From Phycisphaerae bacterium (lineage in GTDB: Bacteria; Planctomycetota; Phycisphaerae; Sedimentisphaerales; UBA12454): 64,000 nucleotides of DNA. Position numbers and translations under genes: made by a program. Of this stretch, positions 11,714 to 64,000 are shown in pieces. The notes under the pieces are model-generated. The model was not told the DNA's origin and did no database searches. It saw only the letters and a list, made by a program, of their open reading frames with translations. Numbering within the stretch: the stretch's first letter is position 1; every line of letters begins with the position of its first letter. Where the stretch lies: assembly GCA_041661665.1 (NCBI GenBank), contig JBAZTW010000007.1, positions 961 through 64,960 of the forward strand, read 5' to 3'.

Positions 11714-12787
11714 ATGTTAAAGACAGCAAAAACGAAAAAAGCGGCAGTTGAAAAACCAGAAAAAACCGTAAAAACCGAAAAAGCAGGTGTAAAGACCGAC
11801 GGCGCACTTGAGCGGGCAATCGCTCAAATCGAAAAGCAGTATGGTGCCGGCTCGATTATGCAGATGGACCAGAGCAAATACGCCAAAATCGAAGGCACTC
11901 CGACCGGTTCGCTCTCGTTAGACATCGCTCTTGGCGGTTGCGGCGTTCCCAGAGGCAGGGTTATCGAATTTTTCGGCCCCGAATCCAGCGGAAAAACAAC
12001 CCTCGCTCTGCACGTCATCGCAAACGCACAGAAAAAAGGCGGGGTTGCGGCATTTATAGATGCAGAACACGCCCTGGACACAACCTGGGCGAAAAAACTC
12101 GGCGTTGATGTCAGCGGCCTTCTCGTCAGCCAGCCCGACACAGGCGAACAGGCTCTCGATATCGCGGAAATGCTGATAAAGTCAAACGCCGTCGATGTGA
12201 TTGTTATCGATTCAGTCGCCGCTCTCATACCTGCCGCTGAACTGGCAGGTGAAATGGGGCAGTCTCATATGGGGCTTCAGGCAAGACTTATGAGCCAGGC
12301 AATGAGAAAACTCACCGGCGTTATAAACAAAAGCAAGACCAGTCTCATTTTTATCAATCAAATAAGAATGAAAATCGGCGTTATGTTCGGAAACCCTGAA
12401 ACAACGACCGGCGGAAACGCTTTGAAATTTTACAGCTCTATCAGATTGGATATCAGAAGAATTTCCACAATTAAGGAAGGCACCGACGCGATCGGAAACA
12501 GAGTAAGGGCAAGAGTCGTGAAGAATAAAATCGCCCCGCCTTTCCGTGAAGCTGAGTTCGATATTATGTTCAACGGCGGGATAAGCTACGAAGGCGATTT
12601 AATTGATTTGGGAACAACCCATAATGTCGTTACTAAAAGCGGCGCTTGGCTTCTCTATGGCGATACTAAATTAGGTCAGGGCAGAGAAAACGCCAAAAAG
12701 TTCCTGATTGAAAATCCGAAGTTGACGGAAGAAATAAAAGAAAAAATCCTCCTCGCCGTCGGCGTAAAAGAGGATGCCAAAAAATAA
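11714..12787 (+). CDS. recA: Recombinase RecA
   Basis: [12 protein letters not shown] Walker [45 protein letters not shown]. Confidence 0.97.
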
Positions 12788-12800
12788 TTTTCAAAATGTT

Positions 12801-13140
12801 TAGCCCCCACACCTGTGGTGGGGGTTATTTCGTGGTTAGGGTTAGCCCTGCCATCACTATGGCAGGGTCCGTGGTTAGCCCCGGCCACCTGTCCTGAGCT
12901 TGTCGAAGGAATACTTTGCCGGGGTTCAGAGCCCAAGCGATAGCGCAGGGTGTTATTTAACCCCCAGTTCTACTGGGGGTCGTAGTCAGAGCCGCGACAG
13001 TAATGGAGCGGTCAGTTTTATATAATTTTTTTTCTCTGTGTCTCTGCCCGTCGCGGCGTAGTTTTGTAGGGTGGACAGCTTGCTGTCCACGCGGTTGTTT
13101 TTTTTAATCTGTGAAATCCGCGTAATCCGCGGTTAAAATT
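12801..13140. repeat. Cluster of hairpin words between recA and the R-M cassette
   Basis: Contains TAGCCCCCACACCTGTGGTGGGGGTTA, CACTATGGCAGGG, CCTGTCCTGAGCTTGTCGAAGGA and CAGAGCCCAAGCGATAGCGCAGGG. Also AACCCCCAGTTCTACTGGGGGT, CAGAGCCGCGACAG, TTCTCTGTGTCTCTG, GTAGGGTGGACAGCTTGCTGTCCACGCGG and AATCCGCGGTTA. Confidence 0.85.
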
Positions 13141-59321: not shown

Positions 59322-60035
59322 TCATCGGGCCTGTTCTATATTCTGTTTGGCTTTATGTTCCATTATTTTTACGGAAGTTTCGACGAATTGCTTAGCCATA
59401 ATTATCTGGATTATCACAACCGCGATGGATACTGGTATTCCGATATAAGGAATGCACGAAACTATCGTGGTAATGTACTGGGCAAGGGCAAGGCCTTTGC
59501 TGGGCATTGGCCCTTCGATATTTCGTTCCTGACAATATAAGTTCATATCCTCCGCAAGTCCGACGATTGCGATATACATCCAGTAAATGTTAAAAAACGG
59601 AATAAAGCAAAAGCCGACCGCTTTGCCCGGCGATGTGCGGGCTTTGCCATCCTGTATCAGCTGCCAGAATCTATAAAGCAGAATGTAGTTAATTACCGTT
59701 CCTGCGATAATAGCCGGTATGCCTATAAATATAAATGCCAGAGGCAAACCTGCGCCCATGAGCCAGGCGAACCAAAGCCAGAGGTTTCGTAGCGATTCAG
59801 GCGGGAAGTTAATTTGATTGTCGGAATATGGTGTAATTGCGAAAGAGCTCGGCGGTATCGGAGCGATATCGGAAAACTTATCGGCAAGCTCCGTCACGCC
59901 CGCCTGCTTCCAGTCGCTCATCGGCGATTTCCAGACAAGAGTTTGCCTAACTATTGTGCCGTTGTGAATCAGCTCTGCAATAACGCTTTCTTCAACAGGA
60001 CCTATCCGCTGACTGTTCCGAACATAATACCACAT
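59322..60035 (-). CDS. GYF_2 (DUF4339)-domain membrane protein
   Basis: MWYYVRNSQRIGPVEESVIAELIHNGTIVRQTLVWKSPMSDWKQAG is the GYF_2 pattern. It is followed by four to five TM helices. Confidence 0.7.
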   Translation of the reverse strand: MWYYVRNSQRIGPVEESVIAELIHNGTIVRQTLVWKSPMSDWKQAGVTELADKFSDIAPIPPSSFAITPYSDNQINFPPESLRNLWLWFAWLMGAGLPLAFIFIGIPAIIAGTVINYILLYRFWQLIQDGKARTSPGKAVGFCFIPFFNIYWMYIAIVGLAEDMNLYCQERNIEGPMPSKGLALAQYITTIVSCIPYIGIPVSIAVVIIQIIMAKQFVETSVKIMEHKAKQNIEQAR

Positions 60036-60149: not shown

Positions 60150-60609
60150 CTAATCTTCATTCTTCAATCTTCAATATTTTTTCTTTGTGCCTATGCCTGC
60201 CATGAGCTTATCGAATGGGTAAACGCAGGGTGTTTTATTTAGCCCCCTGGCCTGCCAGGGGGTTCGTCATTCCAACCGCATTCAGAGCCCAAGCGATAGC
60301 GCAGGGAGAAACAGAGCCCAAGCGACAGCGCAGGGAGTTTCGTAGGGGCAGACCTATGTGTCTGCCCACTGTCATTCCTCGAAGACCCCTTTGGGGAGCG
60401 CAGGCGGGAATCCATTGTATTTAGCCCCCTGGCCAGCCAGGGGGTTCATAATTCCAATCGCATCAGAGCCACAAGCGTAAGCGCGTGGTCATAAAAATAG
60501 CGTAGGGTGGGCTCACCTGTCCTGAGCTTGCCGAATGGGTAGCCCACGCAGTTATAAAAAAAATTGTAGGGGCAGACCTATGTGTCTGCCCACTGTCATT
60601 CCCGGGAAG
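60150..60609. repeat. Dense hairpin-word mosaic with internal direct repeats
   Basis: A ~70-nt direct repeat lies at 60237-60306 / 60419-60488 (TATTTAGCCCCCTGGCC.GCCAGGGGGTTC...CAGAGCC.AAGCG..AGCGC..GG). A 37-nt identical repeat GTAGGGGCAGACCTATGTGTCTGCCCACTGTCATTCC lies at 60342-60378 / 60566-60602. A nested GTAGGGTGGGCT[CCTGTCCTGAGCTTGCCGAATGGG]AGCCCACGC lies at 60502-60549. Confidence 0.85.
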
Positions 60610-60777
60610 TCACTCCTTTGGAATTACAGCAGGGAACCAGTAATCATCATAATCCAGAACGTCCGGATTAAGGTCTTTTGTCAGCAGCGGCCCGGATGTA
60701 TTAACAACCCTGCCTTTGCCGTCAGTTTCTATCGCAAAAACATCTCCGGATTTCTTATGCTTGTATAGAGCTTTCAT
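60610..60777 (-). CDS. Possible 55-aa protein downstream of the methyltransferase (below the ORF-track length cut-off)
   Basis: My own translation of the minus strand gives MKALYKHKKSGDVFAIETDGKGRVVNTSGPLLTKDLNPDVLDYDDYWFPAVIPKE*. It lies 21 nt after the MTase stop. No clear SD. Confidence 0.3.
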   Translation of the reverse strand: MKALYKHKKSGDVFAIETDGKGRVVNTSGPLLTKDLNPDVLDYDDYWFPAVIPKE

Positions 60778-60798
60778 AGGTTTTTGCCATCTCTTATT

Positions 60799-61809
60799 TT
60801 ATTGACCAGCCATAGCGAGCAGAGGAAAGAGGGGTTGGTGATGAATTTCATTTTGCAAAACACCTTTTTTACATTTTGTAATATTTTTACTTTCGTTTGG
60901 TATTTTAAACTCTTTTTTTAATTTAATTTTCTCGAAATCTATTTTTTTTATAGGTTTTGGTACTTCAAAACATTGCTTTAAAGTTTCCCAGTCGTTATTC
61001 CTTATAGTAACTATTTCATTTAAATAAAAGCCCACCCAAACATCATTTATTTTAAAATTTGGTTTAACCTCTTTTAGTTTTTCTTTAGATATTTCTACAT
61101 ACTTTTCATCAAGTTCAAATCCAATATATCTTCTACCTAGTCTCTTTGCAGAAATGGCTGTTGTCCCAGTTCCTGAAAAAGGATCTAATACAATATCATT
61201 TTCATCGGTAGTCATTAAAATTAACCTGTCCAATAGATGCAACGGCAATTGACAAGGGTGAAGGTCGCGTTTGTTATTATGCTTTATCCTATGTATATCT
61301 GTCCAAACATCTGAAACAAGCGGTCCAAAAGGATGCAAGTCTGCTTTTTTTCCACCATAATCTTTAAGTAAATAATCACATTTTCGGCATCGTTTGTGTG
61401 GATGTCTAATTTCATAAAACTTATTTTCTCCCTTATTTTTTGCATAAAAGAGAATTCCATATTGAGATGGCTGCAAACTTTTTCCCATAGGTGCTGTAGG
61501 TGCATCCCATGCAATCCAATGCTTGAAATCAGCCATCTTATTTAAATAAAAAGTATAGTATGTCAACCATTTGGGAATATTATGCAAAAGTATTGATCCA
61601 GTTGGCTTTGTCACCCTGACCATTTCCGCAATCCACTGTTCACACCATTTCAAATAGTCTTGAAACTCTAAACTGTCCTTGTAGCCATTATATTTTTTCT
61701 TCAAATTAAATGGTGGATCGGCAAATGTTACATCAACGCTATTGTCCGGAATATCCTGAAATAGCTTTAAACAGTCGCCTTGTATAATATTGTTCAAATA
61801 GTTTTTCAT
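60799..61809 (-). CDS. Beta-class N6-adenine/N4-cytosine DNA methyltransferase
   Basis: Motif IV VTFADPPFNL precedes motif I LDPFSGTGTTAISA, plus a ~100-aa C-terminal extension. ATG 61809 lies 2 nt after the upstream stop. The alternative ATG 61833 would overlap it by 22 nt. Confidence 0.85.
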   Translation of the reverse strand: MKNYLNNIIQGDCLKLFQDIPDNSVDVTFADPPFNLKKKYNGYKDSLEFQDYLKWCEQWIAEMVRVTKPTGSILLHNIPKWLTYYTFYLNKMADFKHWIAWDAPTAPMGKSLQPSQYGILFYAKNKGENKFYEIRHPHKRCRKCDYLLKDYGGKKADLHPFGPLVSDVWTDIHRIKHNNKRDLHPCQLPLHLLDRLILMTTDENDIVLDPFSGTGTTAISAKRLGRRYIGFELDEKYVEISKEKLKEVKPNFKINDVWVGFYLNEIVTIRNNDWETLKQCFEVPKPIKKIDFEKIKLKKEFKIPNESKNITKCKKGVLQNEIHHQPLFPLLAMAGQ

Positions 61810-61811
61810 TA

Positions 61812-63482
61812 TTAACTTATCGTTAAATTCCATATTTTTAATGCTTTTTCCGCAAAATCAGCCTGTCTTTTTTTTATTGTATCTGGCGACCATTCTTTAC
61901 AACTTATTAAACTTTGTGTAATTTGTATGTCAGATTTTTTGTATTCATTTTTTTTGCTTTCAAAACTACCACTCTTCAAATCCGAATTTAGTTTGGTTTT
62001 TGATAATGTTAAATTACCAATTTTTTTATAGAATGATTTATGATCGTCTTCATTGAATTTTGGCCAATCTTTGCTATCAATAACTGTTTGCGGTAATATA
62101 TGTTCCAAATTTACATTGTCGAAATTTTTAACTACTGCTTTCTCTTCATTTTTGCTATAAATCTTTTCAAGTTCTATCAAATAATATTGAGCAAGAGTAT
62201 TTTTTGTAACGGTAGCCATTGAAAAAGCTTCTTTAAATTGAATATCTGTAGGAATCAATTTTTTAGCAGACTCCAATAACCCCTTTGTATCGTTAATTTC
62301 ACCAGCATTTATTTTTCTTGCTTGATTTGAGAATTCCCTTTCTAATGTACCACCTGGAATAGATCCAGTAATTAAATTTCTAACACTCCAAGATAAAATT
62401 AACTTAAAAGCTTTTTCAACTTCATTTTTATGAAACTGATTTAATATTGCCAGCAAGAGAGGTCTATTTTGATGTAAGCCTAAATCGTTAAGTTTTTCGA
62501 TATATTCTTTTGTTGTTTTTGAATACTCATCCCAAAAAACATGATTTTGATTTAGTAATGCTAAATATTTATTGGTTGAAGACTTCAGGTCGCTCAAAAT
62601 TGTAACTGATAAATTTTGATTAGTAGTTTTGTTTTTAATTTCTAAAAACAAATCTTTTTCACGGGTTAAGCCATTACGAGATGACCAAAAATATCTTATA
62701 TACTTTATTATTTCTTCCTCGTCTTGTGCAGCCTCTATAGCTCCAGACATCTCTGACCAGCAACTTTGTGCTTCCTTAATACGTCCACCTGCTTTGTTAA
62801 AAAGGTGATTTTTTATTAAATCTGCCTGAGACAAAGCCAATCCTCTATCATTTAATGTTTCGAAAACAGTAAATGCATTTGATTCGTCAGGAACTTTTAC
62901 AATTATTATTTTTACCTTATCTTTTATAAAGTCATTTAGATTAAAAATAAAATCATGCTTGCCTCCATCAAGCCTAACCTTATCTTTTATAAATTTATAT
63001 GCAACTATGTAAGCTTTATCTATTCTTTCATGTGACTCTTTAGTTTTTTTCTTGGTCTCACTTTTAATGATTCTGGAAAGAAAATAATCATTATCGTCAT
63101 TACCTAAGCTTAATTTGGGTACGGGTTGCTTTGAACGAATATCAGTTTTGCATATATAGTCTGTTTCAATTATGTCTGCTGCCTTTTTATCATTATTTTC
63201 TTTTAAAAAATCTCTAATTGCCGAATATATAATTGTAATAGTGGCTAACCTTTGTTGTCCGTCAACCACTTCCCAATGCCCTTCATCTTTTGTTTGATTT
63301 ATCACAACGGAGCCAATAAAATAGTCGTGTGGATGTGATTGGTCAATATCGAGAAGTAATTCTTCTACATTTTTTTCTTCCCAAGCATATGCTCTTTGGT
63401 AAATGGGTACAGCAATTTGATGGTCTGATATAAACTTACCAATACCCAATATATCAAATTTTATTTCTTTAAGACTACTCAT
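61812..63482 (-). CDS. DUF262 + DUF1524 (GmrSD/SspE/BrxU-like) two-domain nuclease-family protein
   Basis: N-terminal domain IYQRAYAWEEKNV and DGQQRLATI (DUF262 signatures). C-terminal NLEHILPQ (His-Me finger/DUF1524 signature). ATG 63482 is preceded by GAGGTG. The alternative ATG 63494 overlaps the upstream stop as ATGA. Confidence 0.8.
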   Translation of the reverse strand: MSSLKEIKFDILGIGKFISDHQIAVPIYQRAYAWEEKNVEELLLDIDQSHPHDYFIGSVVINQTKDEGHWEVVDGQQRLATITIIYSAIRDFLKENNDKKAADIIETDYICKTDIRSKQPVPKLSLGNDDNDYFLSRIIKSETKKKTKESHERIDKAYIVAYKFIKDKVRLDGGKHDFIFNLNDFIKDKVKIIIVKVPDESNAFTVFETLNDRGLALSQADLIKNHLFNKAGGRIKEAQSCWSEMSGAIEAAQDEEEIIKYIRYFWSSRNGLTREKDLFLEIKNKTTNQNLSVTILSDLKSSTNKYLALLNQNHVFWDEYSKTTKEYIEKLNDLGLHQNRPLLLAILNQFHKNEVEKAFKLILSWSVRNLITGSIPGGTLEREFSNQARKINAGEINDTKGLLESAKKLIPTDIQFKEAFSMATVTKNTLAQYYLIELEKIYSKNEEKAVVKNFDNVNLEHILPQTVIDSKDWPKFNEDDHKSFYKKIGNLTLSKTKLNSDLKSGSFESKKNEYKKSDIQITQSLISCKEWSPDTIKKRQADFAEKALKIWNLTIS

Positions 63483-63490
63483 GTTACACC

Positions 63491-64000
63491 TCATTTTTTT
63501 GCAAATGTATTTACGAGAAGGGTTTCAAATCTTTTCATTTCTTCTTTATGAAAAGTAAAGACATCTTCATAGGCAGTAACCATTCTTTTTAAATCACCTT
63601 TACGCACATACCAACCAATACCATCCACAAAACCTATAAAAACGGCCTTGGGATAATGTTGCTTTAACAGCGTATCAATCGAAATTTCTGTTTTGGACTT
63701 ATCCCCTTGCCCCGAAGATGTTGTTGCCAAAAATGAACTTTCAGCAATTATTAATGGGTTCTTTTTGTTTGGAATAATAAAATCCATTGTTCGTTTATTA
63801 TCTGGAGCATTATCAATTAATTCTGTCAAATCTCCTCGTTCATACGTTATTCCCAACCTTTCTAAAATCTCTTCAACAACAGTCTCTGGATTGTTGCCAG
63901 CCATTCCTGAATAGCTACCCTTTTCTTTGTATCTAATGAGCGTATCGATCAATTCTGGAATTTCAAACTTCAATTTTGATATACTTAATTTTTTTAATTC
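63491..64000 (-). CDS. PD-(D/E)XK-like protein, candidate restriction endonuclease; 5' end probably outside the window
   Basis: The frame stays open to the window edge, because the ORF-track start at 63973 is a TTG. Core MDFIIPNKKNPLIIAESSFLATTSSGQGDKSK resembles the core of the 13259 ORF (LDFIGRFNGKYVIGESKFLTDFGGHQN). First gene of the operon. Confidence 0.5.
   Translation of the reverse strand, partial: ELKKLSISKLKFEIPELIDTLIRYKEKGSYSGMAGNNPETVVEEILERLGITYERGDLTELIDNAPDNKRTMDFIIPNKKNPLIIAESSFLATTSSGQGDKSKTEISIDTLLKQHYPKAVFIGFVDGIGWYVRKGDLKRMVTAYEDVFTFHKEEMKRFETLLVNTFAKK

Follow-up and report, generated by a model that had tools for sequence, protein, structure and literature searches.

A HEC-06-like gene between a putative type II restriction endonuclease gene and a DNA methyltransferase gene in a Phycisphaerae bacterium

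GmrSD-like nucleases have been described inside the loci of other defence systems. HEC-05 and HEC-06 are embedded in Hma, and further GmrSD-like genes lie in type I restriction-modification (R-M) systems (Payne et al., bioRxiv 10.1101/2024.01.29.577857). In the BREX operon of pEFER, BREX targets unmodified and the embedded BrxU modified phage DNA, so that the two give complementary cover (Picton et al. 2021, PMC8565348). RloF lies in Campylobacter type I R-M loci, according to what Machnicka et al. 2015 (PMC4619093) relate of Miller et al. 2005, and an enrichment of R-M genes around GmrSD homologues has long been known (Machnicka et al. 2015, PMC4619093). Type II operons are not among the host systems analysed for embedding in the cited literature on embedded defence genes. 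Here we describe a locus of Phycisphaerae bacterium (assembly GCA_041661665.1, contig JBAZTW010000007.1, forward-strand positions 961 to 64,960; this whole stretch of 64,000 nucleotides (nt) is called the window), in which a GmrSD-like gene (G) lies between the gene of a putative type II restriction endonuclease (R) and that of a DNA methyltransferase (M2). We put at about 0.68 the probability that R and M2 form a type II R-M pair in which G is embedded as an independent type IV-like nuclease.

The original prediction, made from the letters of the window, had taken characterised GmrSD-like proteins to be stand-alone, which the embedded cases above contradict. It had also offered three explanations of the locus: a three-component R-M variant, a system in which the DUF262 protein reads the methyl mark of its neighbour, and a stack of a type II and a type IV system. 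The evidence favours the last of these. Its view of the block as a candidate composite defence system holds. The features of the cassette are as follows.

63491..64000, minus strand: R, C-terminal 169 codons and stop, corresponding to residues 158-326 of 326 amino acids (aa); the first 157 codons lie past the window edge
63482..63494, minus strand: R/G junction; the R stop TGA at 63491-63493 lies within ATGA and within the GAGGTG Shine-Dalgarno (SD) sequence of the G start at 63482
61812..63482, minus strand: G, 556 aa GmrSD-like protein of the HEC-06 family; an alternative start at 63494 gives a 560 aa open reading frame (ORF)
61807..61814, minus strand: G/M2 junction; G stop TAA, 2 nt, M2 ATG
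60799..61809, minus strand: M2, 336 aa beta-class N6_N4 DNA methyltransferase; a longer 344 aa ORF runs from ATG 61833

The three minus-strand ORFs are closely packed over 60799-64000, and the claim that they have essentially no spacers was confirmed at both junctions, by the ATGA overlap, the GAGGTG before ATG 63482 and the 2-nt gap between G and M2. R, G and M2 appear to be one translationally coupled operon. Because R has no in-frame stop between its first in-window codon and the edge, it is truncated by the window edge, as had been supposed. A Logan contig that matches the window with 100% identity wherever the two overlap supplies the complete gene of 326 aa (L001:217-1197). Gene callers and homologues prefer the G start at 63482, giving 556 aa, and ATG 63494 is also possible. 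This 556 aa form is present on two Logan contigs, both 100% identical to the window across the overlap. An exact look-up of the 560 aa ORF of G and the 336 aa ORF of M2 returned no record, the 556 aa variant of G alone being recorded. R and G proteins identical to those of the window are annotated in an NCBI Phycisphaerae metagenome-assembled genome, where R bears the locus tag WC770_03140. For M2, homology favours 61809 as the true start: in the 344 aa ORF, the alignments to 78 M2 homologues set in only at residue 8-9.

G resembles HEC-06 (PADLOC models PDLC04154-04157) in its two-domain architecture, in its length and in a match along the full profile (PDLC04157, E = 5.5e-185; residues 5-556 of the 560 aa ORF from ATG 63494, profile positions 1-556 of 558). 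Both are nested, in the same orientation, in another DNA-modification-based defence system, and the DGQQR and EH(I)xP residues needed for HEC-06 defence are invariant in the G family. However, the host of HEC-06 is Hma, whereas that of G is a putative type II R-M cassette of two or three genes, to which the clade of the window G is nearly confined. HEC-06 alone protects Escherichia coli without R-M from phage, and the defence is lost when DGQQR or EH residues are mutated; this single-gene resistance concerns the HEC-06 representative of that study only (Payne et al., bioRxiv 10.1101/2024.01.29.577857). The His-Me motif reads DHIYP in GmrSD and BrxU and EHICP in HEC-06.

BrxU is likewise a GmrSD-family nuclease nested in a methylation-based operon. 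G is, however, far from BrxU (HEC-06 and BrxU share 23.7% identity over 11% coverage), and the host system here would be type II R-M; a BREX/BrxU context was rejected because the locus has no BREX genes. RloF is also encoded by a DUF262/DUF1524 gene between genes of an R-M system, but that system is type I and the gene lies between hsdS and hsdR, whereas G lies between a putative type II endonuclease gene and a methyltransferase gene with stop/start coupling. SspE, of the SspABCD-SspE system, combines DUF262 and DUF1524 as well, and its NTPase senses a host-made DNA mark. The SspE models match G no better than 3e-19 over the short range of residues 459-519, and mREase_IV matches at 5e-15, both partially. 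No ssp or dnd genes were found among the window neighbours, on L001 or in related cassettes. An SspE-type system was rejected on account of these weak partial matches and the lack of phosphorothioation genes.

Proteins encoded by the cassette

G carries both domains that had been predicted for the middle ORF. GmrSD_N (PF03235; E = 9e-40, residues 19-232) is the N-terminal DUF262 domain, a ParB/Srx-like NTPase domain, and GmrSD_C (PF07510; E = 2.9e-23, residues 416-549) is the C-terminal DUF1524 His-Me finger nuclease domain. In the motif VDGQQR, residues D74, G75, Q76, Q77 and R78 are invariant across 25 homologues, as are E460, H461, L463 and P464 in the motif NLEHILP. By analogy with GmrSD and BrxU, G most likely attacks phage DNA that its modified bases render refractory to R.

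M2 matches N6_N4_Mtase (PF01555) with E = 1.3e-49 (169.6 bits against a cutoff of 26.7) and PADLOC MTase_II with 9e-73. Its motif IV (DPPF, in FADPPFNL) is located ahead of motif I (LDPFSGTGTT), which is the order of the beta class, so that the assignment of the third gene to this class was correct. The nearest solved structures are those of M.MboIIA and CcrM. M2 is probably an N6-adenine (m6A) enzyme because of its DPPF motif. It shows 58-80% identity to the M2 of 78 related cassettes.

In almost all of the related loci a second, permuted N6_N4/UPF0020-type methyltransferase (M1) is encoded upstream of R and ends about 10 nt before it, so that the usual form of the family is M1-R-M2. The motif IV of M1 is SPPY and, unlike that of M2, is placed after motif I. 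Among loci L003-L082, the M1 genes about 1.2 kb upstream of R form one lineage with 71-81% and another with 41-47% identity to the M1 of locus L163. The M1 of related cassettes does not belong to MethyltransfD12, the Dam-like D12 class. M1 was not found in the 216 nt upstream of the window R available on L001. About 7 other loci, in which R-M2 lies directly among housekeeping genes, lack M1 as well, and so does an eighth (L072), in which an unrelated methyltransferase lies upstream instead.

Judged from its family and its predicted fold, R very probably belongs to the type II PD-(D/E)XK endonucleases of the DpnII/BanI clan. Against Pfam DpnII (PF04556), with a cutoff of 23 bits, the fragment in the window scores 25.7 bits and full-length R 22.7 bits. 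Among diverse full-length members of the family, 30 of 38 match DpnII (best 6e-12) and 26 of 38 match RE_BanI (best 3.6e-13). The family is small, with 266 clusters among 1.84 billion representative proteins searched. Some close homologues are named "DpnII family type II restriction endonuclease" by NCBI and many "hypothetical protein"; NCBIfam has no model for R or G. An AlphaFold2 model based on an alignment of 38 diverse members reached a pLDDT of 92.2, and one with a pLDDT of 48, built on a shallow alignment that comprised only sequences of 85% identity or more, was discarded. The top Foldseek matches of the retained model in the Protein Data Bank (PDB) were type II restriction endonucleases (REases), namely BstEII (E = 6.7e-4, probability 0.98), Ecl18kI, BbvCI and EcoO109I, and the R sequence gave no meaningful match to the PDB either singly or as a profile. 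In the model, the candidate catalytic residues D230 and E244 are on consecutive strands and K258 is on the next helix. The invariant or near-invariant residues of the family, e.g. D230, T250, T251, D283, G284, W287 and R290, are all kept in the window copy.

DpnII/MboI-type systems encode two methyltransferases, in the order dpnM-dpnA-dpnB or mboA-mboB-mboC. The present family resembles them in that R would be a distant DpnII/BanI-clan member, the usual M1-R-M2 form has two methyltransferases, and M2 is of the beta class like DpnA. It differs in that M1 is a permuted N6_N4/UPF0020-type enzyme with SPPY and not a Dam-like D12 enzyme, the window copy lacks M1, and the match of R is borderline. 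DpnII recognises GATC and BanI GGYRCC. The recognition sequence of R is not derivable from its sequence, as the family falls between DpnII and BanI and the nearest solved relatives of M2 are unrelated in specificity.

Related cassettes and an optional slot for G

Relatives of R were scanned with one genome per species, and the best 80 of 228 loci were kept, of which 79 were informative. R identity in these best 80 of 228 loci was 73-86%, and for the cassette as found across many phyla it was put at 73-89%. The hosts belong to Bacteroidota, Ignavibacteria, Patescibacteria, Campylobacterota, Cloacimonadota, Desulfobacterota, Nitrospinota, Omnitrophota and Planctomycetota, and include an Altiarchaeales archaeon. 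R is followed directly by co-oriented M2 in 69 of the 79 informative loci (about 87%), and G lies between R and M2 in the remaining 10, where the junctions are coupled too and G is spaced from M2 by 1-5 nt or a short overlap. Because those 69 related cassettes lack G, the R-M2 core can do without it. No gene other than G occupied the R/M2 slot in any of the 79 loci. At L003, a locus without G, R ends and M2 begins within a shared ATGA, and this ATGA persists at the R/G junction of the window. In every G-bearing cassette seen, G is on the same strand as R and M2. Nested and co-oriented within a cassette that is also found without it, G shows the features by which Payne et al. recognise embedded genes.

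From the side of G, eight relatives at 49-82% identity were looked up, and seven of them are flanked by a DpnII-like R on one side and M2 on the other, whether or not M1 is present. The triad thus recurs when approached from either side, which answers the proposed check for co-occurrence, with G as its optional member. A metagenome scan with the G alignment, whose motifs are common to the whole GmrSD superfamily, recovered only relatives of at most 39% identity, none of which adjoined R or M2. Outgroup relatives at 37% identity are stand-alone in non-R-M contexts.

The only sampled close relative of G outside the R-M2 slot (70% identity) was found at L167:1846-7697 and on L168. There, G follows an ASCH-domain gene and is itself followed by the genes of an unknown 230 aa protein, of a 580 aa N6_N4 methyltransferase in convergent orientation and of a serine recombinase. 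The C-terminal (catalytic) half of this methyltransferase is 36% identical to M2, and what lies here may be another R-M pair, carried by a mobile element. One of the seven relatives in the slot comes from a cultured isolate, Thermodesulfatator autotrophicus (L179; GCA_001642325.1, contig LSFI01000094.1, 4986 nt), whose entire contig consists of exactly M1-R-G-M2, with a G that is 51% identical to that of the window.

On the R tree, G-bearing cassettes turn up at scattered places, among them the deepest branches (L171 and L174). Mean pairwise distances are 0.29 for R, 0.38 for M2 and 0.49 for G. The trees of R and G are partly congruent (Mantel r = 0.41, a value reached in 0 of 2000 permutations), and distance correlations are 0.53 between G and M2 and 0.55 between R and M2. 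The R and G trees are also in clear conflict: the window R groups with L008 and L035 (distance 0.17-0.19), and the window G with L163 and L169 (0.18 and 0.34), whose R proteins are 0.25 away. Because its nearest R and nearest G thus come from different lineages, the window copy is a recombinant of cassette lineages. The simplest account of the whole pattern would be an old association of G with the cassette, in which G persists as a polymorphism of presence/absence and of alleles and is swapped by recombination in the flanking R and M2.

The GC content is 0.30-0.33 in R, 0.30 in G and 0.33 in M2, compared with 0.44 in the remaining window; along the sequence, values of about 0.44-0.50 in the flanking genes give way to 0.27-0.36 in the block. 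In 59 related loci the cassette mean is 0.315 and that of the flanks 0.382. Since the cassette has a GC of 0.30-0.33 against 0.44 for the host, and the same cassette is present in many phyla, it is evidently horizontally acquired, in line with what the AT-richness of the block had first suggested. Many of the public contigs on which R or G occurs roughly equal the cassette in length, which fits a unit shared between genomes. No vehicle for the spread of R was identified, because PLSDB plasmids contain no close relative of R and IMG/VR has R on just two contigs. One of these, classed as viral (UViG_3300003892_000002, L177:4761-8610 and 12567-12956), carries a rearranged copy of the cassette. 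There, M1 is followed by an R (84% identical) that lacks its stop and is fused in frame into an ORF of 874 aa, consisting of R, the first ~170 aa of a DUF262 domain and ~400 aa of HEAT/LRV-like repeats ("HPDLF...VEKLANDED"). An inverted M2 fragment lies 4 kb away.

Probable independence of G from the R-M pair

If the cassette is a type II R-M pair with an embedded independent nuclease, R would cut DNA that lacks the methyl mark of the cassette, and M2 would mark and protect the host chromosome. In G, the DUF262 NTPase domain (DGQQR) would control the DUF1524 His-Me nuclease domain (EHILP). G would cover invaders that escape R, most plausibly phages with modified bases, as BrxU does in BREX, so that the R-M pair and G together may give cover against unmodified and modified invaders. 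Embedding would allow the modules to be transferred and expressed jointly, and homologous recombination in the conserved R and M2 could move G variants in and out of the slot at their junction.

Several points weigh against this reading. The enzymatic activities of R, G and M2 are predicted from their sequences, the modification-dependence of G is presumed from its relatives, and the independence of G from R and M2, like a recognition sequence, is something that we infer. The suggestion that the first ORF is nuclease-like is supported by the DpnII and RE_BanI matches of its family and by the type II REase fold matches. Full-length R falls just short of the Pfam DpnII cutoff, it has no PADLOC REase match at E <= 0.01, and the TM-scores of the PDB matches are low (0.14-0.30). 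Should the site be asymmetric, with M1 and M2 responsible for the protection of one strand each, it would be difficult to account for a copy that has an intact R but no M1; the absence of M1 is tolerated at the other R-M2 loci that lack it. Finally, the G clade is nearly confined to the cassette, always at the same junction and with translational coupling, so that its full independence is open to doubt. PrrC likewise occurs almost only within type I R-M systems, in which it is embedded (Payne et al., bioRxiv 10.1101/2024.01.29.577857).

These last points are taken furthest by a functionally integrated system, in which G depends on the R-M pair either as a guard or as a reader of the M2 mark. 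As a guard, G would be a latent back-up that R or M2 keeps in check until a phage anti-restriction factor puts them out of action, in a manner like that of PrrC, which is functionally tied to its type I host system EcoprrI. As a reader, it would recognise self by the methyl mark of M2, in the way that SspE uses phosphorothioate. We regard such integration as unlikely, although several comparative observations are consistent with it. Seven of the eight sampled G relatives occupy the same R/M2 junction and G is the only gene found in the slot; the association extends to the deepest branches of the R tree and is therefore old; the trees of R and G agree in part; and the stop/start coupling suggests co-translation. 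In addition, the G relative outside the cassette still adjoins a methyltransferase related to M2 in its catalytic half, and Payne et al. (bioRxiv 10.1101/2024.01.29.577857) expected systems that act independently to occur often apart from the system that hosts them. However, about 87% of the cassettes do without G, HEC-06 by itself protects a host that has no R-M, and the 70%-identical relative lies outside the cassette, while the outgroup relatives stand alone in non-R-M contexts. A narrow clade confined to a mobile cassette is also what co-inheritance and recombination would be expected to produce, and the correlation of G with M2 is no higher than that of R with M2. The proposal that the DUF262 protein reads the methyl mark of its neighbour found no positive support, given that HEC-06 works alone and the 70%-identical relative lies elsewhere, yet the near-confinement of the G clade to the cassette leaves it some probability. 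The more specific idea that the G clade is a dedicated partner of the type II R-M cassette, either as a guard acting as a DNA nuclease effector or as a reader of the M1/M2 methylation pattern, is if anything more doubtful.

Alternatively, the window copy could be a decaying or domesticated remnant, in which the cassette lost M1 as it inserted between host repeats and R is either silent or without activity, leaving only the methyltransferase and the type IV-like nuclease at work. The 216 nt upstream of R would fit this, as they contain host repeat words in the place of M1, and so would the promoter search, in which matches were no commoner than in shuffled sequence and none was convincing. We nevertheless consider decay improbable, since the three ORFs are complete, no invariant or near-invariant residue of the R and G families has been lost, the identical sequence is present in independent assemblies and other M1-less R-M2 loci exist. 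An obligate three-component R-M system, with G as a required subunit such as an NTP-driven motor or a second nuclease for R, is barely credible in spite of the tight packing and coupling of the three genes and the recurrence of the triad in many lineages, as it is essentially refuted by the 69 of 79 cassettes in which R abuts M2 and both are intact without G, and G has its own complete NTPase and nuclease domains, as do stand-alone GmrSD-like enzymes.

The locus provides a new host context for a GmrSD-like nuclease and a newly delineated, poorly annotated R family, and no new principle, as the embedding of such nucleases is already known. If a type II R-M pair with an embedded independent G is indeed what the cassette encodes, type II R-M would join Hma, BREX, DISARM and type I R-M as hosts of embedded GmrSD-like nucleases. 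Such stacking would be useful, yet unsurprising to a specialist. As PADLOC is blind to full-length R, loci of this kind are scored as a lone methyltransferase plus HEC-06, and their putative type II R-M nature would be missed by automated defence finders. The cassette family constitutes a natural experiment, with the same R-M2 core present with and without G, and with and without M1, in many phyla. The cultured T. autotrophicus, with its four-gene form, is a practical organism for testing independence versus coupling of embedded type IV-like enzymes.

Boundaries and flanking sequence

On the side of M2, the cassette is followed in the window by the features listed below and by a pyrophosphate-type phosphofructokinase-like gene.

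60610-60777, minus strand: 55 aa ORF, 21 nt downstream of M2 in the same orientation, outside the acquired cassette
60196-60602, no strand: host repeat mosaic of hairpin/word units bounding the cassette side of the locus
59322-60035, minus strand: GYF_2-domain host gene (N-terminal GYF_2, E = 1e-13)

The block had been drawn as 60610-64000. Its three genes were confirmed, but its left end was not. The 55 aa ORF is predicted as a gene by public gene callers and has a host-like GC of 0.44; it has no Pfam, PADLOC or NCBIfam match, and a counterpart is absent from all related cassettes. It is probably a host gene or no gene at all. Because it is host-like in GC and has no cassette counterpart, the acquired block starts at about 60799, the M2 stop, and not at 60610.

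The hairpin-word mosaic of 460 bp that had been noticed to the left of the block is real, at about 60196-60602, and far above chance. It contains three hairpin or word families in 2-3 copies each, compared with about 0 expected by chance, represented by the words GCCCCCTGGCCNGCCAGGGGG, GTAGGGGCAGACCTATGTGTCTGCCCACTGTCATTCC (two identical copies) and CCTGYCNTGAGCTTNYCGAATGGGTA. One of the words occurs again at 12888-12907, 47 kb off, and a related word is present upstream of R at L001:150-180. With this related word upstream of R and the mosaic on the other side, the cassette lies between copies of a dispersed host repeat. Public assemblies break off at these points. The mosaic has no Rfam match, no tRNA genes are close to the locus, and no remnant of a coding sequence is present in the 216 nt upstream of R.

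Directly after the 55 aa ORF, a minus-strand hairpin at 60555-60592 has the form GGGCAGAC-N6-GTCTGCCC, followed by CTACAA and a run of eight T. The mosaic region with this GC hairpin has a fold z-score of -2.75. The hairpin looks like the intrinsic terminator of the operon. It was not called by a consensus terminator scan because the T run begins 6 nt past the stem. The GYF_2 protein has a hydrophobic, membrane-spanning-looking stretch and a weak DUF4328-like match, and appears unrelated to the cassette.

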